The notes: generated by a model not told the origin, from the letters alone. 62,981 nt of DNA, filler included, from Stramenopiles sp. TOSAG23-3 (GCA_900128585.1; 8 parts of 8 records of this genome joined end to end with filler, not necessarily neighbours in it), one strand, 5' to 3'. Counted from the whole stretch's first letter, positions 5,019 through 62,485 are shown. Program-made: numbers and translations.

Positions 5019-5373
5019 TACTTAAAGCAGCCAATTTTTAGTTTTAAATATAAATAACATAACATTTAACGTATTTTTATTTTATCACACAACATTTTTT
5101 TATCTCTGAAACCATTAGGATTAGGGTATGAGGAAGCTAAATTTAATTACTTAAATAACAGCCAATTTTCTTGTTTTTATGATAATATGCTTCGTAAGAT
5201 CAAAAGAGAAAAACATTTATATTTACTTAAATAACAGCCAATTTTCTTGTTTTTTATTCATATCATGTATCATATGATATCATATTTAATGAATGTCTAA
5301 ATTTAGAGTTCAGTTCGCAGTATATTAATTTTAATTACATACTTAAAAATATAACAGACAATTTTCTTGTTTT
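5019..5373 (-). repeat. Cluster of four copies of the 3'-flank element (strand = strand reading AAAACAAGAAAATTGGCTG)
   Basis: TTACTTAAATAACAGCCAATTTTCTTGTTTT or variants at 5019-5045, 5127-5178, 5223-5255 and 5291-5373. Confidence 0.9.
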
Positions 5374-5380
5374 ATATATT

Positions 5381-6886
5381 TTACAATTTTCTCTTCTTTG
5401 CCTCCTGGTCTTGCTGTGCCAACAGCTTCGCTCGCAACTCTTCCCGCTGTTTTCGCATCGTTTCCGCCAACTCGCGCACGGCTGCTTCTTCCTCTTCGTC
5501 GCTTCTTGCAGGTGCACGACTGCGTGCAGTTCGACGCCTAGCATACTCCTCCGTCATCTCGTTTTCGTTTGCGTATATCAGCCGGTTTGAATCGATCATT
5601 TCCTTCCAGCCACTATTGCCTTCGTCGGCGTTGCTAAACAAATCTTGTTTCTCTGCCCGGCACATGCCCCAGCTTCCTCTCGCCAATTCTCCCAGCAATT
5701 GTGTTCTACTCCACCGCGCTACACCCCAAAATACGTGAACAACTGCCGCTGGGGCAGCGCTGCCCGCAGACTCTCCCACCCTTCTCTCGCAATCTGTTTT
5801 TGCGATTTTAGCGACCTCAAAATGGTCGGTGGACGCAACCCACATGTTTCCAACGATAAACACATTGTCATTTGCTTTTATCTCATCTGCATGATGGGCT
5901 TGAATTGACACCATCGCCACGGAGGGAAAGAATGGCATACACGGTCCACCAATATAATGTTTGTACATCAGGACATTTGCCTCGTCGTTGAATGCACCCG
6001 GCTTTATAATCCCCTGTACCAATGCGGGAAACGTCGATGGATTAACTTGTCGGGTGACATTTACTGCGTTTATACCGTCTTCCCCGTCACTGGCGCCATC
6101 ATTGTCTACTTGATATACTATGTACACGGATTCAATCCAATGAACCATACTGCGGACCTGGCGAATGTGGCCATTTGTCCGTAGCATCTGCGCCATGTCT
6201 CGACTGCTTTCCTTTGTGGCGACAATGAAGCACCCGGTTTGAAGAAGTGACGCCAACTCCTCTCCTGTAAACGACTGCATCATTTCGGCGCGGGAAGGAG
6301 GAGAAATTGAAAATTCACTGCGGCAAACGTTGCAAATAAACTGCCTCTCATCTCGCTCGTAAAATGCGGGGTGGGTCGGCTGTGAAACGATTACACTTCT
6401 TTGCCACCTTCGTAAACACTCTAAATGGACAAATTTTTGTCCGCCCTTACACTTGCACGGGGAAATCAATTGACCGTCTTCCTCCGCCCCACAGAAGCAG
6501 TATCTACACATCGCGTCCGTACCAGGCGGCATAGTTTCTAGCGCCAGGGGTTTCTGCGATTGCATAGACGGCTTACTCTCGGGAGCCTGATTGCCTGCAG
6601 ACTCCGTGGCTTTCAAAACGGCAGGACCTTCCCCCTTGGCGTCACTTCCCTCACTTTGGGGTGCTGGCACCTTTGCCGTCTGGGCCTGCAAGGCGGGAGC
6701 AGGAGGGGCGTCGCCTTCTATATCACTCTCAGAGTCTACAAAAGTGTACGTCTCTTGAAAATCTGTGATTTCGTCCACCAAGTCACTACGCAGCAATGTT
6801 TCTAGTTCTTCTGCAGAGGTCCCCGCGCCTACAACTTCAAGGTCCTCTTTACCCTCGCCCATCTCCTCCTCACCTTGTGTTGACAT
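5381..6886 (-). CDS. RING-CH (RINGv) E3 ligase fused to an AlgH/YqgE (DUF179)-like domain
   Basis: CRYC..SPCKCKGGQKFVHLECLRRW..CNVC RINGv; C-terminal YIGGP and VFWGVARWSRTQLLGELARGSW match the DUF179 pattern; first ATG at 6886. Confidence 0.8.
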   Translation of the reverse strand: MSTQGEEEMGEGKEDLEVVGAGTSAEELETLLRSDLVDEITDFQETYTFVDSESDIEGDAPPAPALQAQTAKVPAPQSEGSDAKGEGPAVLKATESAGNQAPESKPSMQSQKPLALETMPPGTDAMCRYCFCGAEEDGQLISPCKCKGGQKFVHLECLRRWQRSVIVSQPTHPAFYERDERQFICNVCRSEFSISPPSRAEMMQSFTGEELASLLQTGCFIVATKESSRDMAQMLRTNGHIRQVRSMVHWIESVYIVYQVDNDGASDGEDGINAVNVTRQVNPSTFPALVQGIIKPGAFNDEANVLMYKHYIGGPCMPFFPSVAMVSIQAHHADEIKANDNVFIVGNMWVASTDHFEVAKIAKTDCERRVGESAGSAAPAAVVHVFWGVARWSRTQLLGELARGSWGMCRAEKQDLFSNADEGNSGWKEMIDSNRLIYANENEMTEEYARRRTARSRAPARSDEEEEAAVRELAETMRKQREELRAKLLAQQDQEAKKRKL

Positions 6887-7908
6887 ACTGAAACGAACTA
6901 GCTGCCGTCGTGAAAGTGCAGAAAACACGCCAACAATTGGCCACAATACTACTAAATATTTTTCCCGTGTAAAATTGGTGCGTAATGAATTATCTAAAAA
7001 GTATTTCTTTCTTTCTTTCGACTCTTTCTTTCTTTCTTTTCTTCAAAATGATGATGATTAATATTATAGTGTTAATAAAAGACGACGACTAATAGTAAAT
7101 AATTGTACTATTTATATTACATACGTGTTTCACACAGTTGTTATTTTTAATATTATTTATATATAATAGACTAATACGAGTATTATAGTTGTTTTGTCGA
7201 AGAATGAATAGTCTAATAATAATATAATTTAATATTGATTGTACTTGTATAATATTATTTACCAATATAAATTGGTAGACTATTATAGTGAAAAGAAAAG
7301 AAAACATTTTTTGTTTTCTTATTTACTTACTCTCATCAACCTGCTTGTATTTTAATAGAACTCAGAAGTAAATAAACGCGAATATTTAATATTTACAATC
7401 TCAAATCTCAGCAGAGCAGGTTTCCTTCCTAGGTTTCAAAACCGAAATGCTAAGAATAGAATTAAATTTATTTATATAGACTACTAAAAATAATAATATA
7501 GATACTGTACAATGTACACTATTATGAATGAGCTGATGATGAAAAAACAGCTTCTTTTTTTTTTTTTTAATTTCCATTCTTCTTTATTACTCCTCGTCGT
7601 ATTATTATATTTTATTATTATTATTATATATTTATTATGATATTCGTTATAATAATAATAATAATAATAATAAAAAACACTAAAAAACAATTTACATTTA
7701 GATAGTCGTCTATATAATATATATTTTACTTCCACACACATGCCATACGGCACTCTTCTTTGTTCAAGATAAAATTCTTCTTCACTGAATCATTTGCTGC
7801 AGTGTATAAAATTACCAACAAATTTGTATATAATAGAAAGTGAATCGACAGAAAGTCTAATTTCATACTCACTACACCCAACGTTCTGGAAATCGACCAA
7901 GCAAACCC

Positions 7909-8604
7909 ATGGCAACCGTGTCCGAGATTTACAACACAAAATTTATCCCTGTTCGCGATGAACGTGGGATAACTGAAAACCATGTAAACTTCGTCAAAGG
8001 GAAAGAAGGAGCGGACCGAGTTTTATGTGTAGTTCCGCAGCTGATGGCGCAACACACCTATATTATTGAAGCCACCAAAAGGGATGGGAACCCAGCTGAG
8101 CTAGAAAAGTTTGACTTTTCCGATTGTGAATTCCATGGGTTCACTGTCGACCATGAAGAGGTAAAAGTAAAGCCTATTCCAATGTCCAGTCGACAGCTAA
8201 AATTTACCGTTACCTTTCTCAGCAGAGGTGAGTACATTTTGAAAGACTCAAAGGAAAACATTGTGATCATGAATGTCGACTCTGCTTCAGCAAAGCATGG
8301 GGTTGACGCGCACCTTTACTACGGCCAATACAACAACAAAATTAGCAAAACGAAGAAAGTTAGCAAGTACATACAAAAAATTGTTTGTGTGTGGGGAAAA
8401 TTTAAGCCCACCTCTATCCCTGAAAGAGAAGCAAACCATTTCCCAAAATACTATGAGCCCAATGACTGCAATCCATGGCCATGGCATATGAATCATAAAG
8501 TTACTAAGATTCCAAAGTTTATCGATGATAAAAAGAAAAAGCAGGAGAAAGAACAGAAGAAAGAAGAAGAAAAGAAGCAAACCGCCGACGACGACGACTT
8601 TTGA
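7909..8604 (+). CDS. Hypothetical protein, 231 aa, with charged C-terminal tail
   Basis: ATG-initiated ORF with coding-like composition between AT-rich spacers; no family recognised. Confidence 0.75.
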   Translation: MATVSEIYNTKFIPVRDERGITENHVNFVKGKEGADRVLCVVPQLMAQHTYIIEATKRDGNPAELEKFDFSDCEFHGFTVDHEEVKVKPIPMSSRQLKFTVTFLSRGEYILKDSKENIVIMNVDSASAKHGVDAHLYYGQYNNKISKTKKVSKYIQKIVCVWGKFKPTSIPEREANHFPKYYEPNDCNPWPWHMNHKVTKIPKFIDDKKKKQEKEQKKEEEKKQTADDDDF

Positions 8605-8785
8605 GCGTTTCTGCAGAGAGTGTTTTTTTAAAGTACCTTTTACCTAATTTAAGTTTATTTAAAAATATTTAAATTTATAAAAAGTAAAATGTTTCCATTT
8701 TTGATTGCAACGAAAATGTTTTCATTTGGCTTTGATCTTTTGAATCGTTTGTTACGCCGCGAGTATTTTGCCTTCTCCCTACATT

Positions 8786-11035
8786 CTACGACCGAAACCT
8801 CACCCCCTTTCGTTGGAGCAAATAGGTCTTAATCTGTTGGATAGTGACGCCTCGGCCTTTTTGCAAGATTCGGGCAGGCTTCACCCGGTTGCTGTGGTAC
8901 GTCACCATTATCGCAGATATGCTGAGTAAAAGAAGCCCCGATATTGCTAAAAAATCTCTACGATGCTTTCTTCCAGCAATTCCGAAACAATAGCAGCATG
9001 CTGAAACGAAAGCAATTACTACCCAAACAATGGAGTGCCAATATTCCCGCAAACCCAGATCATTTTTACAGTCCAAACAGTCCGTGTTGCTTCCGACCAT
9101 GCCGATATCAGACGCATTTTCACGTCCAGCATTTAGATAACTGTCGGAGTACTGAATCGAGTGAGAGGGCGGCTCGTGCAAAAGCCTCTGGTGCTCATTA
9201 TCCTCGTCCCCATCGCCCAAAGCCCCGGCCTTTTCTCTCGCCTTGACAACGTTTATCAACGTGCGTGTCCCGAAAGTGTCGAACAAGCAGTTCGGCCCAC
9301 GAAACGCTCGGTCGGACGCGGGGGGTGGGATATACTTCCCGGTAATTGGGTCCACTGCAGCCGCCCCTTTCGAATGGTTATGCAGCCCTTCAACAATTTT
9401 AGAATGGACGGCGTCTGTAATTGGATAAAACGCAGAGATAATGCACCACGAAATTATAGAGCAGCATGCAGGGACCAAGATGACCATCACTTTCAGGGCG
9501 AAGATAACCCCGTCGGCTTGCTCCACCGTACGGCCCAGGCCTGCACGATACCCAAACGACGCCAAAATTGCCATGCTCACAGCGCTGCTCGGAATATGAA
9601 GCCAGCGAGGGATCATCTCCATGTAACACACGAATTGCGCTTCTCTGCGCAAACCGATGTGAAGCTCGTCATAATCTATACAATCCGCCCTGATGGGCCG
9701 GTGCAAATAATGGACGCCGCCACCGGTCAAACCGACCCAGGCATGGCACAGGGCAAAAAGCCGCTCGTCTCCCTTGCCACAGAAACAGAAAATAATTACG
9801 TACGCTGGCAACCCTAAGACCCAGCCTGCGAGCCACGTAAACCTCTTGTCAACCCGGGCAAGAAATCCAGCCATGCTTGCGTTGGCCATCGCGCTCTTTC
9901 TAAAATTTGGATGCTCGACCCACTCAGGGGGGAGCGTGAAATAATCAACCAACCGGAGGTCGCGCTGGTTCCGACGCTTGATCTCTGCACGCGCGCAAGC
10001 ACGAGTGCTCTCGCAACTCACCCACATCCAAAATGGAGTTGCGCACAGCGCACAAAGCAAGCCGACAATCAGGATGATGGAGACCCACATTTCATATGAT
10101 TCCGGCTGGAGCACGTACTGCACGTAAAACGGTAGCAACCCTTCAGAGAACATGCCGGCCAGGGCGCTGACGGAATGGCCCGTCAGCAGCACCATGAAAG
10201 GACCGTTCGAAATGCAGTTTCGCAGTCCTGCAACGAACGGCATGGAAGGCCTGTTCTTATAAGACGGCTGCTCCCATAACTTCCACGGCTGTCTCGATGA
10301 AGCTTCGGCCCGCTCATTCTCGTCTTCTCGGTAATCAGTAAAGTACGCCAAGATCCAGAACGAAACGATCGTTGAGATCCCGCAAAAAAAAGCAAACGAT
10401 CCGAAGGCGGAAAAATGGTCCCCATGGTACTTTGCAACCAAGATTGCGGGCGCGGCGGCCCCTAAAATCCTCCCAGCGGCTGAAAAAACTGCCCTCCAAG
10501 CAAAAACGCTCGTGCGAGTGGCACAATCTTGCGTGACTTCAGCCCCAAGCGCCATCCACGGGATCCCGAGAGGGAACAACCCATGAGCAAGGGCGCAGAC
10601 CACGTACGTGCTAACAATGGTGCTCATGCTGGAACGGTGCGGTGGCAAGTACAGGCAGATGACCGCAATGGCCTTTATCGGGGCCCATAAAATATAGTAC
10701 ATTCTCCTTCTGCCTTTGAAGAGCCCATTTTTCACGGCAAAAGTATCCATCAGCCATCCCCAAAAGGGGAACAGGATTGTTTCTATTGCCCGCACAGACG
10801 CGTGCAGCATGCCAAACCGCATGGGCTCTATCCGGACGTCGTCGACGTAGAACTTGGTTTGAAATGTATTGTCGAACGTTTCTACGGCACGGTACGCAAG
10901 GCCAGGGAGCGCGTATATCGTCTTTGCAAATAGCGAAACGTTGTTCAAACGATTAAAGTCAGCCTGCTCACTCTCTGGTGCATCAGCAGCCCTTGTAGCC
11001 CCACCCCCTTCCCCACCACCGCCGTGAGAGCTCAT
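8786..11035 (-). CDS. MFS transporter, glycoside-pentoside-hexuronide (MelB/MFSD2-like) family
   Basis: Many TM helices; GWLMD..GRRR, PWMALGAEVT..RTSVFAWR and ADCIDYDELHIGLRREAQF motifs; first ATG at 11035. Confidence 0.85.
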   Translation of the reverse strand: MSSHGGGGEGGGATRAADAPESEQADFNRLNNVSLFAKTIYALPGLAYRAVETFDNTFQTKFYVDDVRIEPMRFGMLHASVRAIETILFPFWGWLMDTFAVKNGLFKGRRRMYYILWAPIKAIAVICLYLPPHRSSMSTIVSTYVVCALAHGLFPLGIPWMALGAEVTQDCATRTSVFAWRAVFSAAGRILGAAAPAILVAKYHGDHFSAFGSFAFFCGISTIVSFWILAYFTDYREDENERAEASSRQPWKLWEQPSYKNRPSMPFVAGLRNCISNGPFMVLLTGHSVSALAGMFSEGLLPFYVQYVLQPESYEMWVSIILIVGLLCALCATPFWMWVSCESTRACARAEIKRRNQRDLRLVDYFTLPPEWVEHPNFRKSAMANASMAGFLARVDKRFTWLAGWVLGLPAYVIIFCFCGKGDERLFALCHAWVGLTGGGVHYLHRPIRADCIDYDELHIGLRREAQFVCYMEMIPRWLHIPSSAVSMAILASFGYRAGLGRTVEQADGVIFALKVMVILVPACCSIISWCIISAFYPITDAVHSKIVEGLHNHSKGAAAVDPITGKYIPPPASDRAFRGPNCLFDTFGTRTLINVVKAREKAGALGDGDEDNEHQRLLHEPPSHSIQYSDSYLNAGRENASDIGMVGSNTDCLDCKNDLGLREYWHSIVWVVIAFVSACCYCFGIAGRKHRRDFLAISGLLLLSISAIMVTYHSNRVKPARILQKGRGVTIQQIKTYLLQRKGVRFRS

Positions 11036-11334
11036 GAGAACGACGGGAGCTCCGCTCTCCCCGGTGAACTTCAACCTACAAACACTGTTCGCGGAAGAAC
11101 GCCCACGGAGGATTGGTGTACAACAATGTCTAAATCTCTCTCCCTTTCCTCGCACTCTTGTAAATTTTCTTTGTACTCAAATCACATTGTTCCTTGTTTT
11201 AAACGTTATTCAAATACCTGTATAATTTTGAAACTCACTAGTGGGAATGGCATATATAAAAAACAATAATAAAAATGATGATGATGTGGCTTTTTTTTTT
11301 TTTAATAAATAATAATAATAATTTTAATAATTAT

Positions 11335-11399
11335 TCTTTCTTTCTTTCTTCTTTCTTCTTCTTGCTTTCTTTCTTTCTTTCATTCTTTCTTTCTTTCTC

Positions 11400-11459
<60 letters not shown>

Positions 11460-11461
11460 TC
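11335..11461. repeat. (TTTC)n microsatellite running into the contig end
   Basis: Seen directly. Confidence 0.95.
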
Positions 11462-15251: not shown

Positions 15252-15276
15252 TTTTTATCACAAACAAATATTAATT

Positions 15277-15299
15277 AAAAAAAAAACAAGAAAATTGGC
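15277..15299 (+). repeat. Short 3'-flank element copy
   Basis: A10-CAAGAAAATTGGC about 26 nt after the stop at 15251. Confidence 0.85.
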
Positions 15300-15337
15300 A
15301 AATATTAATAAAATTCTTTAAAAATAAAACTGGTAGG

Positions 15338-15768
15338 CATCGACGCAAATACAAATACCCATGTTCGGATCATGTATGGAGCACATTAGAGAATGATAGT
15401 CACGACTAAGTGACAAAGAATATATGGATCAGTGAAATCACAGGAGCTGAGACAAGTTCGCAGTATATGAAGGAACGTAAACCTTTGATCGACAAAAGGG
15501 GCAGATTCACTTTCGTGGTATCATATGAAGAAGATAAATTTTAATAGTGACAAGGGTATATCGATTATGTTAGTAAAACCAAAAGAGCAAGGATAAGTTC
15601 GCAGCTCATGAAGGAATGTAAACCTAGAATGTCTAAATCTAGATTTCAGTTCGCAGTACATTTTAATTTTAATTTTACTTAAATAACAGCCAATTTTCTT
15701 GTTTAAATTTTAATAACTTAAAATAACAGCCAATTTTCTTGTTTAATAACAGCCAATTTTTTGTTTTT
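15338..15768 (-). mobile_element. Composite long copy of the 3'-flank element with three tandem fixed ends
   Basis: Aligns with 50945-51155 (reverse complement), 51930-52139 and 62164-62485; fixed ends at 15675-15704, 15716-15744 and 15745-15768. Confidence 0.75.
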
Positions 15769-15866
15769 CAATATAAAACTGTGCTGTTGTTGTTGTTGTT
15801 GTGTAAATCAATCATCATCCATAATATACCCGTAGAGACAAACTCTGATCCCAATTATTGTTGTAG

Positions 15867-16373
15867 TTAGCATGCGGAGTCAACTTTCCATATTTCCGTC
15901 TGCTCATCGTTCATTTCACCTCTGTGTTTAAAACCATTTTTAGCAAGAACGCGTTTAGAAGCGTTATTTTGTCTATCTACAAGAGCAAATACACGATCAC
16001 CCACATCTTGTATTTGGTTACGAGCAAATTGTAACGCTAGATTTACTGCTTTCGTTGCCCGCCCACATCCTCGGTATGTTTCTAAAATGCCAAAACCGAT
16101 TTCAAAACCTCCATACTTTGCATTCTTCCGTACAAGGCAACAGCCGACAGGAGTCTTCTCGTCCAGTACAGTGAACATCCAACATTGCTGCTGTTTGCAG
16201 TTCTCTTCGGACCGATTGCAAAATTCCGCGATTTTCTCTTCTGGCAAAACACTCCCTCCTGCATTTTCTTTTATAATTAAGGGGTCTCGAAAAAAAGAGG
16301 ACAAAAATTTAAAGTCTGCTTGTGTATGGAGACGAATATTGACGCAGTTCTCCACCATTTTCTTTCCCTGCAT
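15867..16373 (-). CDS. GNAT acetyltransferase, RimJ/RimL-like
   Basis: FEIGFGILETYRGCGRAT motif A and NNASKRVLAKNGF motif B. Confidence 0.88.
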   Translation of the reverse strand: MQGKKMVENCVNIRLHTQADFKFLSSFFRDPLIIKENAGGSVLPEEKIAEFCNRSEENCKQQQCWMFTVLDEKTPVGCCLVRKNAKYGGFEIGFGILETYRGCGRATKAVNLALQFARNQIQDVGDRVFALVDRQNNASKRVLAKNGFKHRGEMNDEQTEIWKVDSAC

Positions 16374-22344: not shown

Positions 22345-22357
22345 TCTAAAAAACTGA

Positions 22358-22552
22358 CAGGAACGTAAACTGTTAATTCACAAAAGGAGCAGATCCACAT
22401 TCGCGGTATATGAAGACATCATGAGCGTAAAACGGGGAAGTGTCTATTAAAAAAACTGTAAATGAATTAAACAAGAAAATTGGCTGTTATTGAATTTAAA
22501 TAACTAAGAAAAAGTACTTAAAATAACAACAGGGCCAATTTTTTGTTTTTTT
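22358..22552. repeat. 3'-flank element pieces in a convergent spacer
   Basis: Internal fragment 22358-22417 (-), fixed end 22469-22491 (+), degenerate fixed end 22515-22552 (-). Confidence 0.85.
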
Positions 22553-26164: not shown

Positions 26165-26300
26165 CGACGAGATGCCCTCGGCAAACGGGTCTCGTGTTCG
26201 TAAAATTCTTACTCTTATTTCTTATTATTGTATATAAATTTATATTTTTTCGCTTTATCATAGGAAAAAGTTTACACCGCTTTCATTATAAAATTAATAA

Positions 26301-26332
26301 AAAAGCAAAAAATAGGCTCTGTTATTTAAGTA
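26301..26332 (+). repeat. Degenerate 3'-flank element copy
   Basis: AAAAGCAAAAAATAGGCTCTGTTATTTAAGTA after the POP5 stop. Confidence 0.65.
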
Positions 26333-26534
26333 CTTTGTAATTAAAATTTATTTTCATGTTTAAAAAACAAAAACAAAACTTTGTATTAATTAAAAAAATA
26401 CGCTGCTAACATTACGAGCGTTTATTGTGAACTTTTAATTTTATCGTTCGCAATAAAAACAAAATGGAATTAACATTTGTTGGGACAAATATCCAAAACC
26501 AAACATACTACCACTCACTCCTCTGTCTCCTATC

Positions 26535-30429: not shown

Positions 30430-30666
30430 TAAGATTTTGGCGAATGGGGGTATTCATCGAGAACAACTAACAGTGAAAAAACAAATTATATACTAAGTGA
30501 TACACTCACACTCACAGTATTTCGGGCAAAGCTGCGAAAGACATCACCACATTAAGTACGAATTAATATAAGAGCAAGAACCTTTAAGCTTTAAGAACTT
30601 ACCTTAAAAATGAAAACGTTAAAAAAAACATTCTGAAAATACGAAAACACCTCACACTCCACCACG

Positions 30667-36032: not shown

Positions 36033-36100
36033 CGTATTAGTGCCATACAGTGTAAGTTTGCCATAAAATTATTTAACGAAAGTATATTAAATTAAGTTTT

Positions 36101-36125
36101 AAAAACAAGAAAATTGGCTGTTATT
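36101..36125 (+). repeat. 3'-flank element fixed end
   Basis: AAAAACAAGAAAATTGGCTGTTATT about 70 nt after the kinesin stop. Confidence 0.9.
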
Positions 36126-36392
36126 TTTATTATATTAAATCAGGGTTTTTCTTTCTAAAATAATAAAAAATGTGTGCAAAATACAAGCACTATATCTACT
36201 TTAGAATTACGGATTTAGGCAACCACAACACAAGTCTAGCCGATTGTTTCTAATTGTTAAGTAACATACTATATAATCATATTTTTCAATAAAATATTTG
36301 TGCTTTTTCAATAACAGCCAGAGTTGGTTTACAGCCCCATATTTTTTATACTTTTGTTTCATTGCTTTCATGCAGTTTCAAATTGTTTTACC

Positions 36393-39400: not shown

Positions 39401-39409
39401 AGGATTTTT

Positions 39410-39529
39410 AAAGCAAGAGATTGGCTTTAAAGATTTGCTGTTATTTAAGTAATTAAAATATTATCTCTCATATATGTACCGCGAAAATGAATCTGCTCCT
39501 TTTGTGCAATTAAAGGTTTATACGTTCCT
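39410..39529 (+). repeat. 3'-flank element copy of about 120 bp
   Basis: Starts 10 nt after the stop; GCTGTTATTTAAGTAATTAAAAT..ATGTACCGCGAAAATGAATCTGCTCCTTTT..AAAGGTTTATACGTTCCT. Confidence 0.88.
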
Positions 39530-43568: not shown

Positions 43569-44549
43569 TATCTTTGAGTAAAATTATTCATAACATTTTT
43601 ATCACGTGTGGTAAAACTCAAAAACAAAATATTATTTTGATTTTACTCCCATCTTTACTTCGGATGAAAAATAAATTATATAGTATGATATCATACTCTA
43701 AATGAGAGTCTGAAAGCATGCTATATATAATATTGCTCGCTTTTCTAATTTACTCTAATAAGTACGTATTGATGACGGCTATTGTTGGTGACTCGTATGT
43801 ATATATTGCATGACCTCTAGATGCTGTGTTGGATATGAAGCTGCACTGCCGCTGAGTGACACTGCTATCATATTCTATGTCACCACCAAGCTCAGCAGAG
43901 TTCGATGCAAATGTTCATATGCGGAAATATTTTCTGCGCTGATAATATGATATATTGTTTAAAATTAACGAAATACCACTATCGGAGAAATATATGGATA
44001 AATCGGGGGTCGTACATCATAAACCATGAAAAATTAATGTTGTGCTTTACTATTGCATTTCCTAGTCTAGTTAAAATATACTACCTAAAATCTTTATTTT
44101 CTTTCTTTTTTTCTTCCTATTTTTTTAGTTAAACTATTTTTTCGTAAATATCGACTCGGAATACATATATATAGCATCGCTAATAAAAAATTACCGCCAA
44201 AGATGCCTTTTATTGATACGAGGATGGATGACAGGTACCTGTCAAATTTTGTTGTGCGTAAAAAATGATGTTTAGCAGATAGCATGGAGTAAAGAAGAAA
44301 GAAAAAAACACCCTTTTTTTGTTTTCACATGTTATTACATACATTTTCATCATCATCCATCATCACAGGAGGTCAGTTCGTAGGAGTCAGGGGAAGTAGT
44401 GAGTATTATTATTATCTCCATACATCCTCAGCTCAGAAAACAAACGACAATTACATTGTTAAAAAAAAAACACACACACACAAACAAAACAAATATTATA
44501 CTGAAGCCAAATAAGTAAAAGATTTAATTAAGAACGAATAATCTACGAA

Positions 44550-49890: not shown

Positions 49891-49937
49891 CAAATATCAT
49901 ACGCCGTTTATTATATTTAAAAAAGGGGGGCAGACAA

Positions 49938-50521: not shown

Positions 50522-50588
50522 GTTCCAAGGCCAGGAAAGGGTGCCGATTTTAGAAATTACTTCGATTCATAGTTCATAAATTTTAATT

Positions 50589-52228
50589 AAAAACAAAATA
50601 ATGGCTCCTATTTAAGTAAATTAAAAACAAGAAAATTGGCTGTTACGACCCTCCCCCGACATCTCAACCCACAGATGACAATCCCTTGACTGATTTACAA
50701 GACAGACAACGATAACCTCTAAAACAATTAAGCCGCTGCTTGGAAAATCGTACAAGGATTGAGTCACCTATGAGTGAGATATCGGATGAGGAAGTTGANN
50801 NNNNNNNNNCGATTCGGATCGTGCATGGAGTCCATCTATCGATTAGTAAAACCACAAGAGCAAAGATAAGTTCGAAATTTAGAGTTCAGTTCGCAGTACA
50901 TTAATTTTAATTACTTAAATAACAGCCAATTTTCTTGTTTTTTTATTTAAGTAATTAAAATTTATCTTCTTCATGTACAGCGAATGTGAATCTGCTCCTT
51001 CTGTTCACATAAAAAGTTTATTTTACTTCATGTACTGCGAACTTATCTTTGCTCCTGTGATTTTACTAATCAATTTACTCTTGTCACTTAGTCTAGACTA
51101 TCATTCTCTGATATACTCCATGCATAACTCGAATGGATATTTAGATTTCCGACGATGACAAATGACCCGTAATCAACTTCCTCACCCGATGTCTCATCCA
51201 TAGATAAATCAGACACTGTGTGATATTTTCCAAGCAGCGGCGTAAATGTTTTGAAGGTGCTCATTTTCTGTCTTGTAAATCCGTCAAAGAATTTAAAAAC
51301 AAAAACTGAATGACAGTTTATCTAAATTTTAAGTAAATGTTTCAATTTGATGTTAAACCACCCTAAGGTTAATTAATCGAACTTTTTATTATTTAATACG
51401 AGGATTTGCGGTGATTGAACACTGAGGTTGTTTTTGCAGGATCAAAATTGGTTGGAAGAAGAAAAACGGAAGGTGCCGAGGGAATCGAGTACGCCCAGTT
51501 TAAAAGGTAACAGAAAGCATAAATATAAGCGTTATTTGAACTGAGATGCCGCGTTATTCAATACACTGATTCGGATCATGCATAGAGTACACATGAAAAT
51601 GATAGTGAAGACTGAGGGACAAGGGTATATTGATTACTAAAATCACAACAGTAGAGATCAGTTCGCAATACATTAATTTTAATTACTTAAATAACAGCCA
51701 CGAGCATTCCAGCAGCGATGATTTCGGTAGTGCCCTGACTATAATAGTGTCAGTTCAATCCTCAATACAATCCAGCAAGGAGCAATCCAGCATCGCCCCG
51801 ACCCTAGTAGTGCCACCCTCGGATGAAGACACAGAGATACAATCCTCAACACAATCATCAGAAGAAGGGAACCAGAGCATTGCCAGCAGGGCGAGACTCA
51901 ACAGGCACGCCAACGAACCACAACCTACCGATTCGGATATGCGTGCAGTACATCTGAGATTGATAGTCAACACAAAGTGACAAGGGTATATTGATTAGTA
52001 AAACCACAAGAGCAGAGATAAGTTCGCAGTACATGCAGGAACGTAAACCTCTAATGGATAAAAGGAGCAGATTCATTTTCGCGGTACATGAGAAAAGCTA
52101 AATCTAAATTACTTAAATAACAGCCAATTTTCTGTTTTTAATGTTTATATTTAGTAGTGGTTGATTAAGGGTTTAACACGGAAATTTTAAGAGTAAGGTA
52201 CTTAAATAACAGCCAATTTTCTTGTTTT
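50589..52228. mobile_element. Nest of 3'-flank element copies, including the longest ones
   Basis: Copies at 50589-50645 (+, two starts), 50675-50944 (-), 50945-51290 (+), 51568-51699 (-), 51930-52139 (-) and 52199-52228 (-). Confidence 0.8.
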
Positions 52229-52312
52229 CAATTACAACCAGTTAGCCAATCTGTTTTCTGTGCTTGCACCAGTGTCCTTTAAGCCATTGTAACCCTTTTT
52301 CAAATACCGTCT

Positions 52313-54577: not shown

Positions 54578-54748
54578 GTAATTTAGACATTGTGATAATA
54601 AATTTATCTCTCGCCAGTTCCAGAATTTATCTGGGTGTTTTGATTACAGAAAACCAGTCAGAAAACTAGTAGGGCCTGAAACGAATGTTAAACAGCTTTT
54701 TGCAAGACTTACTGATGTAAATAATTATTACCAGTACCAAGGCACAGA

Positions 54749-54822
54749 GTACCGTACCCGGTTCCAGTATAATACCTGTACCGGTACAGGTAGGCACAGG
54801 TATAATACCTGTACACCGGTAT
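54749..54822. repeat. GTAC/TACC-rich palindromic cluster
   Basis: Perfect palindrome TACCTGTACCGGTACAGGTA at 54773-54792 and hairpin ACAGGTA-TAA-TACCTGT at 54796-54812. Confidence 0.85.
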
Positions 54823-57596: not shown

Positions 57597-57723
57597 AGAA
57601 GAAAAAGAAGAAAGAAGAAAGAAGAAAGAAGAAGAAGAAGAAGAAGAAGGAGAAGAAGAAGAAGAAGAAGAAGAAAGAAGAAAGAAGAAGAAGAAGAAGA
57701 AGAAGGAGAAGGAGAAGAAGAAG
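57597..57723. repeat. (GAA)n microsatellite at contig start
   Basis: Seen directly. Confidence 0.95.
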
Positions 57724-58214
57724 ACGTAGATAGACGACTAATATAATAAATACTAACTGATAATAATAAAAAATAAAAAAAAAATAATAATAAAAATTAT
57801 TATTATTATTATTATATCGATCATCTCATAAAAAAATTACAAAAATTCCAATCTGTGTATTACTAGTAAAATTCGTTTTCTCAGCGGTTATTCTCTCTCA
57901 TCACAAGTTCGATTAAATTGTAACTAAACACGAACATATTCGGAGTTTAACATGTGCGTATACTGCTCTTAACCCGTCTATTACGCTCAAGCAACAGTTT
58001 TTGCTTTTCTTGGGATACTAGGCGGAGTAGCCGCAGAAAGTTTTCAACAGTTCGCTGATCCGCACCAAGGAAGGCGGGTTTTGCTTTTTTAGCAACAGGT
58101 TGGAGAGAGTTCTCCGCGGCTTGGCTTCATAACTACATTCACGGTTAAACACCGAGCAGTACGAAGCTTTTATATTCCTAACAGAGTAAAAAATTTGGGA
58201 TCAACGGGGACGAT

Positions 58215-58916
58215 ATGGTCTCGATCATGGGTGGGACGGTAAACGATTCGCCGCGAATCAATTGTATGGTAAAATTGTTCACAGAAAAATTGCCCATAGT
58301 GTGCAAAGTAGCGGTGCGGCAGAGCGAAGCATCTGTGCAGCACGCAGCCCTGATCCTTCATGCTGATCAAGGTACCATTTCCCTCAACTTAGTCTCCAGC
58401 ACGGACCAATTTTACCAATTGCAATGGTCTATGGAAAACGTAGAAGAATTCAAAGAAGGTTGCGGCTTTAGCAATTGTGATAACGAGGTGTTTGTTCGAA
58501 ATTTTTTACAAGCAGTTGAAGTTGCGCAAGTTCAATTTGAAATTAGGAACGGGCAGCCAGTGTCGGCCAGCGTACTGCCATTGCTGAACACTCGGGAATG
58601 TAAGATTCGTCTTAAATTTGTGAAAGAAGCGAGCTTTTACGAGATGCTCATTTGTATATGCTTCAAAAGAAAATCTGCAGATTTTTTGTGTACGGCTGCT
58701 AGGAAAGGGAGCCAACCGAAACAAGATCCCGGGCAGGAAAGAACTGAAACCCTGCCGTCTGCCGCCGGCGCTGGCCTTCCTCTGCCAGCTCCCCGAAGGA
58801 ACCAGAAGGGTCCTGCAATTGGTGTGATACTTCCATCGCATAAGCCGCTAAGGTACAAAAAAAAACGAAAGAAAAATAGGAATTCTTCACATGATGGTGA
58901 AAAGAAAGCAAAATAG
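58215..58916 (+). CDS. Hypothetical nuclear protein, possibly with an XRCC4/XLF/PAXX-like head
   Basis: 233-aa ORF with a beta-rich N-terminal region, low-complexity tail and NLS-like KKKRKK; fold call is only a resemblance. Confidence 0.6.
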   Translation: MVSIMGGTVNDSPRINCMVKLFTEKLPIVCKVAVRQSEASVQHAALILHADQGTISLNLVSSTDQFYQLQWSMENVEEFKEGCGFSNCDNEVFVRNFLQAVEVAQVQFEIRNGQPVSASVLPLLNTRECKIRLKFVKEASFYEMLICICFKRKSADFLCTAARKGSQPKQDPGQERTETLPSAAGAGLPLPAPRRNQKGPAIGVILPSHKPLRYKKKRKKNRNSSHDGEKKAK

Positions 58917-59325
58917 TAGAGCAAGCGTGCTGTGAAATTACAGTACTCGTATTCGTCTATGATAGTCATATTGTTATGATAACGACCTAAAAAACAGCTT
59001 TTATATTTTATTTTATTTAAATATTATTTGGTACGAAGAAGACCGTCCGTCCTAAAATATTTATAAAAAAATAATAAGTAAAAAATAGATTCCAGCAGTT
59101 AGGTGTATAAATAGGGTATCTGAACCACTGGTAGTACGTGGACTCCTGGTATTAATAGTCTTCTACGAGGTAATAATGTAAAAGGCAATATTAATTATTA
59201 TTGCTCATCGTATGACGTTATTTTATTTGGCTTAAATTACTACGAGTACACTGGTCGCTGCGTGGGCTGCATCACTTTTGATCCTATTGATCGCAAGGAT
59301 GATTCGCTCCCGCATCGCTTCCGCT

Positions 59326-59425: not shown

Positions 59426-60700
59426 CTGGTGAAGCAATGCGACGCATACCTGGGATGTTGCAACCTTTTGCGGGTCATGCAGTCGATGAAGGGAAGCTAT
59501 CGTTCAGACGATCCCTTCTTTATTTTGTTAACGGATATGTCTGACCCGGCCCGTATGCGGGCGTTGCGGGATGCCCTCATTACTCCCCAGATTGACAGAA
59601 TCCGGCTCGCTTTGGACGTCTGCCAAACGTGCCGTATCGAAGAAGAGCCGGTGCACGCCGCGTGGGGGCTAGCACTTGTCCGTATGGGCGAATTTCGCGA
59701 GGCTCGAGTGAAATTTGCGGCTTGCTTGCCGAAACTTCCGAGCGATCGGGTGAACATGTTCGTGCGAGAAATTGTGTCTATTATAAAGAACAATGCTTTG
59801 CACCCATGCGGGATGGAAGATATAACCGACCGCCATGTCGATTCTTCCTTCATTGTGATGAGCGAGGGTATTTGGTCCTCGAAACCCATGGACACGCTGG
59901 CCTTAACAAACAAACAAATGGATTCCTCCGCGTCGAAAAAGGAAGGTAACCTTTCCCCCGAACTTCGCTCTGAGTGCCTGCACTATATAGAGACATACAG
60001 TGTCGCTCACGGAGGATCAAAAGACTTGGTGAAGTTTTACATTTCACAAAGTCTCGTGAAAGAAGCCTGCCTATGTGTAGTGGCCCAGCGTCTTCCAAAA
60101 TCAATTTTTGTGGAAATTGTAGTTCGTTCCAGCGTCGATAAAGGGCACACTTCAGAGTTGATCAAAATATTGGAACGAATAGATGCATCGCTGACAGTAG
60201 TCAGGCCTTACTTGCAGGGGATGTGCCAGTGGTTGCATCGCCAGGAAAGGCACCATTTGCTGCTGGTGACCCAGGTGCTAATGAAGGACCACATTGGGGC
60301 GGCATTTACATGCGAGCGCCTCTTCGATGCGGCCCACGGCTTCGATGAACGCATGGAGCACCTTCGCCAGGTGAATGATCATTTCACTGCCGCATTGTCA
60401 CAGTCGGCGAAGGTGCGAATTTCGGCGCTATCATTAGAGTGTGCGAAAGAAATTGGTATCAAGGATTTTGCAAGCAACGAGACCGCAATTCGAAGGAGAA
60501 TCCTATTAGTGGGGCTACAAATGGCCGTACTGAAACTGCTCCCTGCCACACGGACACCAGCATTGATCGCGGTTGGAGTTGCGGCGGAAAGCGAGGACGA
60601 ACGCCAGAGCCAGAAGGAGAGGCAAGATGAGACGCTGGGTATGGTAAAAAAAATCGATCCAAGGCTTTGGACAGAATTAAGCCGAGCGCTTGGTAGGTAA
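59426..60700 (+). CDS. ZFYVE26: Spastizin/ZFYVE26-like C-terminal region, 5'-partial
   Basis: LRDALI..DRIRLALDVCQTCRIEEEPVHAAWGLALVRMGEFREARVKFAACL and QVLMKDHIGAAFTC resemble the ZFYVE26 C-terminus. Confidence 0.75.
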   Translation: MVKQCDAYLGCCNLLRVMQSMKGSYRSDDPFFILLTDMSDPARMRALRDALITPQIDRIRLALDVCQTCRIEEEPVHAAWGLALVRMGEFREARVKFAACLPKLPSDRVNMFVREIVSIIKNNALHPCGMEDITDRHVDSSFIVMSEGIWSSKPMDTLALTNKQMDSSASKKEGNLSPELRSECLHYIETYSVAHGGSKDLVKFYISQSLVKEACLCVVAQRLPKSIFVEIVVRSSVDKGHTSELIKILERIDASLTVVRPYLQGMCQWLHRQERHHLLLVTQVLMKDHIGAAFTCERLFDAAHGFDERMEHLRQVNDHFTAALSQSAKVRISALSLECAKEIGIKDFASNETAIRRRILLVGLQMAVLKLLPATRTPALIAVGVAAESEDERQSQKERQDETLGMVKKIDPRLWTELSRALGR

Positions 60701-60736
60701 AATGGGTTTAATCTATTACTTGTAAATTTACAAGTT

Positions 60737-60756
60737 AAACCAAGAAAATTGGCTGT
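60737..60756 (+). repeat. 3'-flank element fixed end
   Basis: AAACCAAGAAAATTGGCTGT about 37 nt after the stop. Confidence 0.85.
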
Positions 60757-61153
60757 CGTTTTTATTATATAGTGCGTCAGTCGTCTATATACTTATAAGT
60801 ATAAATAGCTTTTTTTAGATAAAATTATTATATCTCCTTTAATAAGGCAATAGCATAGAGTTAAAACACGGTTTTTATGCAGGGCCGGCAGGATCCAAAA
60901 TAATAAATACTCTATACTACTACACTAACGAACTAAGCGCCAAGGTTCTGCTGACTAACTCTTTCGTTTTGAATGAAACAACAAGAAGAAAGAAAGAAAA
61001 GTTAGAACATATTATAATAATATCAAGTTAGAAAAGGAAGAAGAATGAAAATAGTAGATCCTGCCTCGATGATTCGCACGTATTAATCGGTTTGAGAACG
61101 TTTTGTTGAGCCTTACTTAGGATTGCACATAAAAAAAGGTCAAGATAGTATCA

Positions 61154-61253: not shown

Positions 61254-61259
61254 ACGAGG

Positions 61260-62075
61260 ATGGAGCCTACCCGTGAGTCCAGGAAGAACCACGGCCACGC
61301 CGTCTTGGATTTCAACAAACCATGGGGAGATGTTTGGCACGCACTGAAACATTTAGGATGGAAATGGGTTCGGGGGGACTTGGTGCACGATTACTTCTAC
61401 TTGATGCCGGACGTCCCGTCGAAAAAGTGGGGAGAATTGGGCGTCAACATGTTCGAATCGCCGGAAAGCGTTGTCGCATTTTTAAAACAGGAAGACCAAG
61501 AGGGGGGCGGCGGTGGCTCTTCGTCGAGGGCAGGCTGCGACGAGAGTATTACGGCTGATGCGAAACGTTTGCTACCCGGGCTTGTCAAGGCTGTCACGGC
61601 GCTGCACGGTGGCGCGCCCCGTGCCCAACGACGGCACACCAGGCAGCACAATCTGTTTTTTGTAGCCGTATGGGATGCGTTACGGAAGAAGATTCAGGAG
61701 GAACATTCCGTAGATGTCAACGCGATTGGGGGCGTAGAGGCATTGAAGCGGTTTGCGACCAATGCGTGTTTTCAGAACGACTCGGGTGACCGGACGGTGT
61801 CCTTGGCCACGAAAAAATCTGCGAATTCCAACGCTAAGGCCAGCCGAAAGACCGGAATGGCCCGACCGGCAGGAAGGTCGAGACCAAAGCCAAAAGCGAA
61901 GAAGCAGGGCCGCCCCGGGTCGTCCTCGAAAACGGCAACAAGGTTTACGAGAGTATCCCGGCGCCCAGTTCGAAAGAGGAAGTCCGCGCTGGCGGCGTGG
62001 GAGTTTCTTGGTACACGGCCGAACCGGGGCAACACCACCCCGTTCTTGAAGCAGTTGAAAGAGAGCAAGAAGTGA
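61260..62075 (+). CDS. Hypothetical basic protein with a W..L...GW..Y..P..G...F module, possibly 5'-partial
   Basis: WGDVWHALKHLGWKWVRGDLVHDYFYLMPDV..GVNMFESPESVVAFL resembles a small domain I recall from oomycete and diatom proteins. Confidence 0.7.
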   Translation: MEPTRESRKNHGHAVLDFNKPWGDVWHALKHLGWKWVRGDLVHDYFYLMPDVPSKKWGELGVNMFESPESVVAFLKQEDQEGGGGGSSSRAGCDESITADAKRLLPGLVKAVTALHGGAPRAQRRHTRQHNLFFVAVWDALRKKIQEEHSVDVNAIGGVEALKRFATNACFQNDSGDRTVSLATKKSANSNAKASRKTGMARPAGRSRPKPKAKKQGRPGSSSKTATRFTRVSRRPVRKRKSALAAWEFLGTRPNRGNTTPFLKQLKESKK

Positions 62076-62163
62076 AGACAGGCGCCGGGTTGAGAGTATA
62101 AGTGCATTCTTCTCTTCTTGGAAATGATTTTAAAAATATTAAGTTATCTTAATTACTTATCTT

Positions 62164-62485
62164 AAAACAAGAAAATTGGCTGTTATTTATAATAAGTAAA
62201 ATTAAATTTAGCGCTTCCTATTAAGTAATTAAAATTAATGTACTGCGATCTTGAAAACAAAAAACTGGGGGCTGCTATTTTAAAGTACAAAGTAATTAAA
62301 ATGTATCGTCTTTTAACCGCGAATATGAATCTGCTCCTTGAGCACATGAAAAGTTTTACTTTCCTTCGTATCTCTGCTCCAAAAAACTGCGGTTTTACTA
62401 ACTTTACTATATATTGTCACTTAGTCTAGACTATCATTCTCTGATGAACTCCAATCATAACCCGAATGGATATTTGGATTTCCGA
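62164..62485 (+). mobile_element. Composite long copy of the 3'-flank element
   Basis: Fixed end at 62164, restart near 62253, then TGTCACTTAGTCTAGACTATCATTCTCTGAT..CGAATGGATATTT matching 51082-51152. Confidence 0.85.

Follow-up and report, generated by a model that had tools for sequence, protein, structure and literature searches.

The repeat that recurs behind the genes of Stramenopiles sp. TOSAG23-3 most probably represents, in complement, the 3' terminus of a family of non-LTR (LINE-like) retrotransposons, whose copies crowd behind stop codons, usually tail-first; we put the probability of this reading at about 0.7. The kind of element is a known one and it is the insertion pattern that is unusual, with truncated copies lying just past stop codons and the tail directed toward the gene.

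Detection and extent of the repeat

The window is the whole stretch of DNA that was analysed, 62,981 nt with filler, in which eight pieces of the genome (GCA_900128585.1) are joined end to end. The first 20 nt of the motif match 15 times in the window (0.01 expected) on seven of the eight pieces, in agreement with the preliminary description that the repeat is real, and the 38-mer motif matches three times with up to 3 mismatches (0 expected). When a profile built from the motif's first 33 nt was run on the window with nhmmer, 36 rows resulted, of which 23 have E<1; the 13 rows with E>=9.6 are chance-like 8-16-nt matches and were left out of the count. All 23 matches lie on the 3' side of long ORFs, in spacers, on seven of the eight pieces, and none is in the promoter-side spacers or coding sequences of the window, as had been described. 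The genome is compact and gene orientation alternates.

Copies of the repeat, referred to as family 1, have one fixed end and another that is cut at ~17 to at least 370 nt. At least 20 copies share the end ...CCAATTTTCTTG(T)n, in which the T-run is 3 to 10 long, and the longer copies reach into the UTR and the end of the ORF. Very short solo tails (17-26 nt) and degenerate remnants keep the core GGCTGTTATTTAAGTA. The fixed and truncated ends had been correctly recognized, but the end earlier called A-rich is the complement of the element's T-rich 3' end, so the element is antisense to the host gene and the polarity first assigned to it was reversed. The family 1 copies are as follows, the strand in each row being that of the element's own ORF sense, such that the motif as first described is the complement.

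5019..5039, +, degenerate tail remnant (nhmmer E=0.073)
5111..5180, +, ~70-nt 5'-truncated copy, tail toward the RINGv/DUF179 gene stop 5381(-); 66 nt (5115-5180) are 100% identical to positions 3628-3693 of contig L001
5216..5257, +, ~40-nt 5'-truncated copy (20-mer and nhmmer matches)
5291..5379, +, ~89-nt older copy (~85% identity), tail end 2-8 nt from stop 5381(-)
15280..15299, -, shortest copy, CCAATTTTCTTG plus T10, tail toward stop 15251(+); flanked by an 11-nt direct repeat, CAAATATTAAT (3 of 500 shuffles reach 11 nt)
15338..15768, +, long copy (15338-15705: ORF end, 3'UTR and tail) followed head-to-tail by 40-nt and 25-nt copies, tails pointing to the GNAT gene stop 15867(-)
22358..22416, +, internal (UTR) fragment lacking a tail
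22466..22492, -, 25-nt tail copy, 122 nt past the CorA gene stop 22344(+) (20-mer and nhmmer)
22516..22548, +, degenerate tail toward a putative 68-aa ORF ending at 22593(-) (nhmmer)
26297..26336, -, degenerate tail, 132 nt past the Rpp14 gene stop 26164(+) (nhmmer)
36099..36127, -, 26-nt tail copy, 67 nt past the kinesin stop 36032(+) (20-mer and nhmmer); candidate 10-nt TSD TATATTAAAT (length reached by 9 of 500 shuffles)
36307..36320, +, partial tail remnant, 73 nt from stop 36393(-) (nhmmer E=0.3)
39404..39529, -, ~125-nt diverged copy, beginning 4 nt past stop 39400(+)
50586..50645, -, two short tail copies, one degenerate, ~700 nt past stop 49890(+) (nhmmer)
50645..50946, +, copy with the last ~50 element-ORF codons, 3'UTR and tail, and an assembly gap inside (50799-50809); tblastn 76% over 50 aa, blastn 89.6% (50645-50798 against L001 3357-3510)
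50943..51300, -, ~358-nt copy lacking the last 19 tail nt, tail-to-tail against 50645..50946
51565..51700, +, copy lacking the last 13 tail nt
51701..52142, +, copy with the C-terminal coding part of the ORF, a variant 3'UTR and tail; 51768-51919 is 88-90% identical to L001 3203-3322
52198..52232, +, ~34-nt tail copy, 81 nt from the fucosyltransferase gene stop 52313(-) (20-mer and nhmmer)
60738..60757, -, 20-nt tail copy, 37 nt past stop 60700(+) (20-mer and nhmmer)
62162..62251, -, ~90-nt copy, 87 nt past stop 62075(+)
62270..62498, -, ~230-nt diverged copy, degenerate tail plus UTR/ORF end (includes an nhmmer match)

One of the genes first listed, that ending at 22593(-), is only the putative 68-aa ORF, which a degenerate tail faces.

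The element encodes a reverse transcriptase

An exact 22-mer search of the genome contigs gave a single match, contig L001, which carries a 5'-open ORF of 1191 aa (2-3577, +); the 116-nt UTR behind this ORF closes with the motif in reverse complement. Reverse-complemented, the motif is the T-rich 3' end (...TAACAGCCAATTTTCTTGTTTTT) of a retroelement that carries an ORF. In the window copies the last ORF codons are likewise contiguous with UTR and tail, and the element in RNA sense reads ORF, stop, ~100-250-nt 3'UTR and TTACTTAAATAACAGCCAATTTTCTTG(T)3-10.

The ORF order is reverse transcriptase (RT), a long linker, a Cys/His cluster and a predicted PD-(D/E)XK-like nuclease; L001 is cut inside the RT, P0123 (a relative 41% identical to the L001 ORF) is truncated and the database copies are fragments, so that the class assignment is read from the RT onward, and an LTR or another architecture upstream of it is possible but less probable. 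The L001 ORF opens inside the RT with QGTQQGDPIG and AFADDLNIV, and P0123 adds PDAKNAFNT and YADD, such that motifs A, B and C of an RT can be made out. Pfam scans of the whole L001 ORF and P0123 proteins gave no match, and the first 309 aa of P0123 match RVT_1 with E=5.5e-4 and 20.1 bits, below the curated cut-off of 29.6. The nearest Atlas clusters are reverse transcriptase / RVT_1 (0.94-0.95), and the representative library contains 295 protein fragments of this ORF family, most of them short.

A Cys/His cluster (CPC..C..H..C..H) is visible in the L001 ORF, and residues 703-978 gave an AF2 model with pLDDT 75 and pTM 0.71. PD-(D/E)XK nucleases make up nearly all of the best 50 matches listed in a VIA fold search of this model, including the Prp8 endonuclease-like domain (Z 5.5, rmsd 5.1, 121 aligned), R2 8ibw_C 934-1083 (Z 5.0, rmsd 4.2, 126 aligned) and R2Tg 9dou_A (Z 4.7, rmsd 3.9, 121 aligned), and the best Foldseek match is the restriction enzyme Bse634I (E=0.06); these are weak fold matches (Z<=5.5, Foldseek E>=0.06), and a Z under 8 can mean a common arrangement. 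The order of RT, Cys/His motif and PD-(D/E)XK nuclease is that of R2, as described in PMC4838377.

Retroposition marks, age and abundance

The common 3' end combined with graded truncation from 17 nt to at least 370 nt is the 5' truncation typical of non-LTR retrotransposons, a LINE-type feature not identified as such in the preliminary description; family 1 copies also form head-to-tail arrays. A 3' tail rich in T instead of A is uncommon among LINEs and speaks against the assignment. Direct repeats were sought around 13 copies and found at two (11 and 10 nt) and at none of the other 11; the two candidate TSDs, CAAATATTAAT and TATATTAAAT, differ from each other.

Some copies are 95-100% identical to other copies, and because the 66-nt copy is 100% identical to one in an unrelated assembly we favour recent transposition over an old conserved signal. 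Contigs from two independent metagenome runs read across the insertions at 15280-15483 and at 22358-22544, which are therefore shared and old. Summed contig depth, which is not a copy number, is 3060 and 6272 over 15382-15763 in two DNA metagenome runs, as compared to ~5-7 on the flanking genes; by this measure family 1 is very high in copy number in metagenomes holding the host organism.

Placement and polarity

Family 1 is present in 9 of 14 3'-side spacers and absent from all 12 5'-side (promoter) spacers and from both tandem spacers (Fisher p=7e-4), in a sample that is small (8 pieces, ~28 gene ends). This is in keeping with the preliminary suggestion of a mobile element concentrated in gene 3' flanks, the sequence being the 3' terminal portion of an RT-encoding retroelement. 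The distance earlier given, about 8-140 nt past the stop, is close to that of first copies (4-132 nt); further copies lie up to ~700-1370 nt away (spacer 49891-52312). At approximately 11-13 of the 28 gene ends, a copy lies no more than ~130 nt past the stop.

The position of copies on the sense strand after a stop had also been put forward, but 11 of the 14 3'-side spacers are convergent, lying between two gene ends, and there the observation tests nothing because either orientation satisfies it for one of the two genes. In such spacers orientation carries little information, so that the evidence for polarity is weaker than first thought. The informative comparison is whether the tail points toward the nearer stop, which it does at 11 of the 14 loci (p=0.029, binomial test), the facing classes having been assigned by hand from profile matches and copy alignments. 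The exceptions, at three loci, are 22466-22492, the tail-to-tail pair 50941/50943 and 62162-62498. Within the window the 3'-side bias is upheld, and the polarity is upheld in part.

A second short repeat, family 2, has a T-tail resembling that of family 1 and ends ...TTTGTTTTTT.

4896..5010, +, three short head-to-tail copies ending ...ACATACTATATAATTTGTTTTTT, T-tails toward stop 5381(-)
30476..30499, -, copy with T-tail ~47 nt from the FHA gene stop 30429(+)
36263..36286, +, copy with T-tail toward stop 36393(-)
43666..43689, -, copy in a tandem (3'-to-5') spacer, ~98 nt past the amylase-like gene stop 43568(+), tail toward the stop

Family 2 follows the polarity of family 1 at all four loci and may use the same machinery. 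No full-length family 2 copy was seen in the window, and as regards a SINE-type head (tRNA-, 7SL- or 5S-derived), scans of the window found neither a tRNA nor an Rfam family. With both families included, 10 of 14 3'-side and 0 of 12 5'-side spacers are occupied (p=2e-4), and the tail is toward the nearer stop at 15 of 18 loci (p=0.004).

No common motif was found among the stop-to-tail sequences compared, and the insertion specificity is positional and polar, not for a sequence. Simple pairing of a U-tail with an A-run fails to explain the polarity, because the sense strand shows no marked excess of A past the stops (AT skew +0.05, as compared to +0.09 upstream of starts).

Alternative explanations

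The strongest competitor, which we regard as possible but clearly the less probable, is that the same element integrates nearly at random and that purifying selection leaves only tail-to-gene copies in 3' flanks, copies in coding sequence, in promoters and in orientations disturbing 3'-end formation having been purged. A gene-dense genome with alternating gene orientation suits this scenario, as do the two old insertions shared by metagenome runs, the breaking of the polarity rule at 3 of 14 loci, and the unoccupied convergent spacers, which are just 72-237 nt long, such that a surviving insertion is necessarily close to a stop. However, the 5'-side spacers are equally long in total (8809 nt, against 8384 nt on the 3' side, or 5668 nt without repeats) yet contain no copies; the youngest-looking copies (95-100% identical) are all in 3' flanks with polarity kept; the three to four independent same-orientation copies with unrelated spacers at 5019-5379 are hard to obtain by filtering alone; and family 2 has the same polarity at its four loci. 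We regard integration bias for transcription-termination zones as the likelier cause of the placement, at roughly even odds.

It is unlikely that the complement of the tail (AAAACAAGAAAATTGGCTGTTATTTAAGTA on the gene sense strand) has been co-opted for 3'-end formation, termination or mRNA regulation, with solo tails maintained by selection. The share of gene ends with a nearby copy and the retention of the GGCTGTTATTTAAGTA core in solo tails and remnants are in its favour, and the repeat is present in RNA-library contigs (the bin with the repeat has summed depths of 32.7 and 212, as compared to 0-4 on genes). The Leishmania SIDER retroposons in 3'UTRs, described as regulating mRNA in PMC5509151 and PMC5689007, provide a precedent. 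Yet about half or more of the gene ends have no copy, the distance from stop to copy varies from 4 to 132 nt, copies are stacked in tandem, and identity of up to 100% between loci and assemblies fits recent transposition. Neither strand of the repeat shows a conserved RNA structure (z 0.4-1.5), and the Rfam scan of the window returned no family. The repeat-to-gene depth ratio in the RNA runs (~16-85) is also far below that in the DNA runs (~560-920), a weak measure, and among the matches listed in the contig-level RNA data there are no poly(A) loose ends. The domesticated long 3'-end processing signal that was the other initial proposal has no direct support.

That the repeat is what remains of a DNA transposon (a MITE bounded by terminal inverted repeats, or a rolling-circle element of Helitron type) is very improbable: the one inverted motif pair, around ~300 nt at 50625-50941, is a 5'-truncated (+) copy abutting an independent short (-) tail, with an ORF end and UTR in a single orientation inside, and most copies have a single tail that is contiguous with the RT-encoding ORF. 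Helitrons too show copies with fixed and variable ends and tandem arrays, and their ends are 5'-TC and 3'-CTRR with a subterminal 3' hairpin; here the copies terminate in CTTG(T)n, form no stable hairpin and are linked to an RT ORF, not to Rep/helicase. Introners, which lie inside coding regions and are spliced out, were rejected, as Pfam domains reach the C-terminal ends before stops (kinesin 325/327, CorA 292/292) and convergent neighbours leave no room for more exons.

Comparison with known systems

Restriction-like-endonuclease (RLE) non-LTR retrotransposons (R2, R4, NeSL/Utopia, CRE) resemble this element in their single ORF with RT, Cys/His motif and C-terminal PD-(D/E)XK-type nuclease, the last being predicted here from weak fold matches, and in having 5'-truncated copies with a common 3' end, non-random sites and short head-to-tail copies. 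The RT of R2 undergoes template jumping, which is compatible with head-to-tail copies. The element differs in its T-run tail, in an RVT_1 similarity below threshold, and in having no conserved target sequence, only position and polarity behind protein-coding genes. Known RLE elements, according to PMC4640811, target one defined repeat (rRNA, spliced-leader or U2 snRNA genes, or microsatellites).

The Dictyostelium TRE5 and TRE3 elements are also LINE-type and occupy safe havens in a gene-dense protist genome, integrating at a fixed side and distance of a gene class and so avoiding damage, according to PMC5391098, PMC3159450 and PMC5006619. In these same sources they use RNA polymerase III genes via TFIIIB/C, whereas the neighbours here are ordinary protein-coding genes and scans of the window found no tRNA or Rfam RNA gene. 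Leishmania SIDER1 and SIDER2 are similar in being hundreds or more of short truncated LINE-derived copies mainly behind coding sequences, but are extinct, are located within polycistronic units and work in the sense direction inside 3'UTRs; in the window, by contrast, some copies are young (95-100% identical) and the element is antisense to the gene. Eukaryotic poly(A) and termination signals share the position shortly past stops and the strand polarity, and differ from these transposon-derived copies of 17 to >370 nt, which occur in arrays at under half of gene ends with variable spacing.

A plausible mechanism and its implications

A plausible scenario is that copies arise by target-primed reverse transcription that starts at the tail and stops early. 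From the observed copy orientation, the cDNA primer would be a 3'-OH on the sense strand of the host gene, a few to ~130 nt past the stop. Integration bias could work through sense-strand DNA that is exposed or nicked at termination zones, or through replication forks that converge there; its effect would be reinforced by purifying selection, the genome being compact. Less probably, retrotransposition may be coupled to the termination zone itself, with sense-strand priming just past the poly(A) site at a 3'-OH exposed by transcription (in an R-loop or displaced strand) or by converging replication forks. If so, the 3' flank of every protein-coding gene would be a polar safe haven for the element, and the antisense tail now behind some 40% of genes would have been drawn into 3'-end formation or termination in an abundant marine protist.

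The repeat and its identity

The A-rich motif that the preliminary description placed behind stop codons is a genuine, non-random repeat (family 1). The full 38-mer has three matches in the window at up to 3 mismatches, with 0 expected; the first 20 nt of it match 15 times versus 0.01 expected. A profile built from the first 33 nt returns 36 rows in the window, of which 23 have E<1; the other 13 are short and chance-like (E of at least 9.6) and are left out. All 23 counted matches lie in spacers past the stops of long ORFs, on seven of the eight pieces, and the claim that copies sit after stops holds to this extent. One end is constant and the other variable, also as described, with copy lengths of 17, 20, 23, 25, 26, ~34 and 40 nt, and longer copies of 66-70, ~89, ~125 and at least 350 nt. 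The tail shows no conserved RNA structure on either strand (z 0.4-1.5).

The exact 22-nt core of the motif has a single match in the prokaryote genome collection, the 4.1-kb contig L001, which is likely a eukaryotic contig contaminating, through binning, a bin labelled as a bacterial MAG; within that bin the motif occurs on L001 alone. The viral contig collection contains no exact 22-mer match and no relative of the L001 ORF. This ORF (1191 aa, plus strand) is open at its 5' side, has its last position at 3577, and is followed by a 116-nt UTR ending ...TTACTTAAATAACAGCCAATTTTCTTGTTTTT, the reverse complement of the motif. Longer copies in the window have the last ORF codons directly joined to the UTR and tail, and the repeat is therefore the 3' end of an ORF-bearing element, of which the antisense lies on the sense strand of the host gene. 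The core of the earlier observation is thus explained as a known kind of element viewed from the 'wrong' strand.

Window copies compared with L001
50645-50798, copy with ORF end, 89.6% identity to L001 3357-3510, protein 76% over 50 aa
51768-51919, copy with ORF end, 88-90% identity to L001
51173-51293, third copy with ORF end, on the other strand
5115-5180, short copy, 100% identity to L001 3628-3693

Immediately past the retroelement tail, L001 carries a foldback or palindromic element (3731-4100; arms of 153 nt, 92% complementary, with 35 nt between them) that is weakly similar to window 7222-7316.

A reverse transcriptase with a nuclease-like C-terminal domain

The L001 ORF begins within a reverse transcriptase (QGTQQGDPIG, AFADDLNIV), and a protein relative that is 41% identical to it, P0123, reaches further N-terminal (PDAKNAFNT, YADD). 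The first 309 residues of P0123 match Pfam RVT_1 with E=5.5e-4 and 20.1 bits, under the curated 29.6, and Pfam scans of the whole L001 ORF, P0123 and a further protein, P0122, give no reverse transcriptase match. Protein language-model neighbours are reverse-transcriptase clusters (0.94-0.95). PDB sequence searches found no match (165 positions kept in the A1 profile). A whole-protein model of P0123 has a pLDDT of 54 and no usable fold match (Foldseek E of at least 0.3); a helical bundle (301-435) dominates its VIA list, in which LINE-1 ORF2p (Z 5.9) and the RT of a group II intron (Z 5.5) appear amid many unrelated rows. The representative library contains 295 relatives of the ORF, nearly all short fragments and none a full-length element protein; a search for relatives that are longer or complete at the N terminus returned P0123 alone.

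After the reverse transcriptase, the L001 ORF continues with a linker of ~450 aa, a Cys/His cluster and a nuclease-like domain. An AF2 model of residues 703-978 (pLDDT 75, pTM 0.71) gives a VIA list made up almost uniformly of PD-(D/E)XK nucleases: the Prp8 endonuclease-like domain (Z 5.5 and 5.4), influenza PA endonuclease (Z 5.1), VRR_NUC (Z 5.0), the R2 RLE (8ibw_C 934-1083, Z 5.0, rmsd 4.2, 126 aligned; 9dou_A, Z 4.7), Hjc and several restriction enzymes. The top Foldseek match is Bse634I (E=0.06). These scores are individually weak, and their weight comes from the coherence of the list. The R2-type architecture is outlined as RT - CCHC - PD-(D/E)XK (PMC4838377).

Marks of retroposition and abundance

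Graded 5' truncation with a common 3' end is a LINE hallmark. Head-to-tail arrays are seen too: in 15640-15768 a 40-nt and then a 25-nt copy come directly after a long one, and in 5019-5379 there are four copies with unrelated spacers of 33-35 nt between them. The number of Ts in the terminal run is between 3 and 10. Flanking direct repeats were found at two of 13 copies tested and are absent at the other 11.

Copies with flanking direct repeats
15277-15299, 23-nt insert, CCAATTTTCTTG+T10+A in element sense, flanked by CAAATATTAAT (11 nt; 3/500 shuffles)
36099-36127, copy flanked by TATATTAAAT (10 nt; 9/500 shuffles), with 3-6 extra bases between repeat and copy

Family 1 is clearly very abundant. 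Summed contig depth, which does not equal copy number, reaches 3060 and 6272 in the bin 15382-15763 in two DNA metagenome runs, versus ~5-7 on flanking genes, and 32.7 and 212 versus 0-4 in two RNA-library runs. Contigs from both DNA runs cross 15006/14430-15483 and 21756/22068-22544, so these insertions are common to separate populations. Joints across the repeats have sides of just 20-24 nt, and are therefore attributed to other copies and not to empty alleles. The presence of the repeat in RNA-library contigs means either that at least some copies are transcribed or that DNA was carried over into the library. We note that in RNA-library contigs of runs X16 and X17 the 15382-15763 repeat is fused to unrelated, partly coding-like sequence, with loose ends at 15616, 15697 and 15799.

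Placement and polarity at gene ends

The eight unlinked pieces, joined by N44-TTAATTAATTAA-N44, carry long eukaryotic ORFs apparently without introns, whose products include an ABC transporter, a kinesin-14, a WSD/PWWP/HMG protein, a CorA+EF-hand protein, a fucosyl/galactosyltransferase, and RIO1 and RsmB-like proteins. The nearest named relatives of the kinesin are from stramenopiles (43-48% identity), and many marine metagenome runs contain the locus. No tRNAs or Rfam families were found in the window.

Pieces of the window
1-11461
11562-22998
23099-34528
34629-46034
46135-57496
57597-59325
59426-61153
61254-62981

Gene orientation follows a near-perfect + - + - alternation, giving convergent 3' spacers and divergent 5' spacers with only two tandem junctions (32641-32986 and 43569-44531), and 11 of the 14 3'-side spacers are consequently convergent. 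With spacer classes set from long ORFs and Pfam-supported genes, family 1 occupies 9/14 3'-side, 0/12 5'-side and 0/2 tandem spacers (Fisher p=7e-4). Total spacer length is 8384 nt on the 3' side (5668 nt minus repeats), 8809 nt on the 5' side and 1309 nt in tandem; by length-based chance alone, finding all nine loci in 3' spacers has p ~1e-4. Convergent spacers without copies are very short (72-237 nt).

The preliminary description also held that copies lie on the sense strand of the gene they follow. They do lie behind stops, but any copy in a convergent spacer is on the sense strand past one of its two stops, so that strand is no test there. The gene said to end at 22593(-) amounts to an open 68-aa terminal ORF and not to any longer reading frame, translation of 22593-22998 (-) being otherwise interrupted by several stops; the ORF must be the terminal exon of a gene with introns or else not a gene at all.

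A more informative measure of polarity is whether the T-rich tail faces the nearer stop, which it does at 11 of 14 family 1 loci (p=0.029). The exceptions are 22466-22492, which is approximately equidistant, 62162-62498, and the 50941/50943 pair, arranged tail to tail in the middle of a 2.4-kb spacer. Polarity is constant across several hundred nt of array and reverses in the middle of a convergent spacer.

A second short repeat, family 2 (...TAAAACATACTATATAATTTGTTTTTT), has six matches in the window versus 0.07 expected. Its copies are truncated, head-to-tail and exclusively past stops, with the T-tail facing the nearer stop at all four loci, and the family could represent a non-autonomous companion of the LINE.

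Family 2 loci
4896-5010
30476-30499
36263-36286
43666-43689

One of these lies in a tandem spacer, ~98 nt past the upstream gene and ~840 nt ahead of the next start. With both families pooled, the polarity rule is kept at 15/18 loci (p=0.004), and 10/14 3'-side versus 0/12 5'-side spacers are occupied (p=2e-4).

Two other features of the spacers are worth recording. The ~700 nt that separate the stop at 49890 from the first tail, at 50586 (49891-50586), have coding-like composition (GC ~0.48) and contain a 93-aa ORF (50088-50366); they could be an uncalled small gene, an exon or another repeat, and if they hold a gene the tails at 50586-50645 lie ~65 nt past its end. Promoter-side spacers are occupied by long (GAA)n/(CTT)n and T-run microsatellites; several piece ends fall inside these, which are thus probably assembly break points.

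Microsatellites in promoter-side spacers
11310-11461
19412-19512
23099-23150
25157-25600
28965-29240
41040-41320
57597-57730

How the copies may have reached gene ends

The identity of the element, its antisense orientation to host genes, its 5' truncation and its enrichment past stops are shown by the data above. From these, the copies were most likely made by target-primed reverse transcription starting at the U-rich 3' end of the element RNA. The cDNA (AAAACAAG...) would then extend the sense strand of the host gene, which would put the priming 3'-OH on that strand, beyond the stop by a few to ~130 nt. Priming at the 50941/50943 junction would again be from a sense strand, that of the 3' tail of a resident copy. 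Polarity could be tied to the direction of transcription, through a non-template strand that is displaced or nicked where transcription terminates, or else to the direction of converging replication forks. The array-long polarity and its reversal within spacers fit such a link to transcription or fork direction, and fit a sequence motif less well. The window copies have no sequence in common ahead of their tails; TGTAA and AATAAA, considered as possible signals close upstream of the tail, are irregularly placed and not enriched, and the sense strand past stops is not especially A-rich, so that A-richness finds no support as an explanation for the polarity.

We put the odds that integration is targeted at about even. 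The main rival is that insertion is random and selection acting on the insertions explains where copies are found. A minor one is that the complement of the tail has been co-opted as a 3'-end signal. No poly(A)-type loose end was seen among the rows listed for the RNA-library contigs (9 and 16 of 30 bins covered). Readings of the repeat as a MITE, Helitron or introner were rejected on feature-by-feature class tests.

Relation to known elements

The element, of which the 3' part alone is recovered, is best classed as a LINE-type retrotransposon, probably of the RLE kind, with an unusual class of target. It appears to resemble RLE-bearing, site-specific LINEs in architecture and behaviour, with the nuclease assigned on weak fold scores; those LINEs use one repeated target sequence, whereas no such target feature was found here. 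Known site-specific LINE targets are rRNA, snRNA, spliced-leader, tRNA and telomeric sequences, and in the literature at the level of abstracts we found no described LINE preferring the 3' flank of protein-coding genes. The nearest functional analogues, as outlined in published accounts, are the Dictyostelium TRE elements, with polar, position-specific integration beside tRNA genes in a compact genome, and the Leishmania SIDERs, which are truncated retroposons found mostly in 3'UTRs. What is left as new is the polar build-up behind genes, a tail made of a T-run, and an RT/nuclease protein that is divergent and comes from marine fragments alone.

Annotators should be aware that the tails flag the ends of genes in antisense and interrupt assemblies. 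Should integration prove to be targeted, the element would have a new safe-haven strategy, one that could couple target-primed reverse transcription to the termination of transcription or replication, and it would count among candidate sources of new RT/nuclease specificities. If selection alone is responsible, it provides an example of hundreds of retroelement tails being tolerated in a compact genome, that of an uncultured but abundant marine eukaryote.
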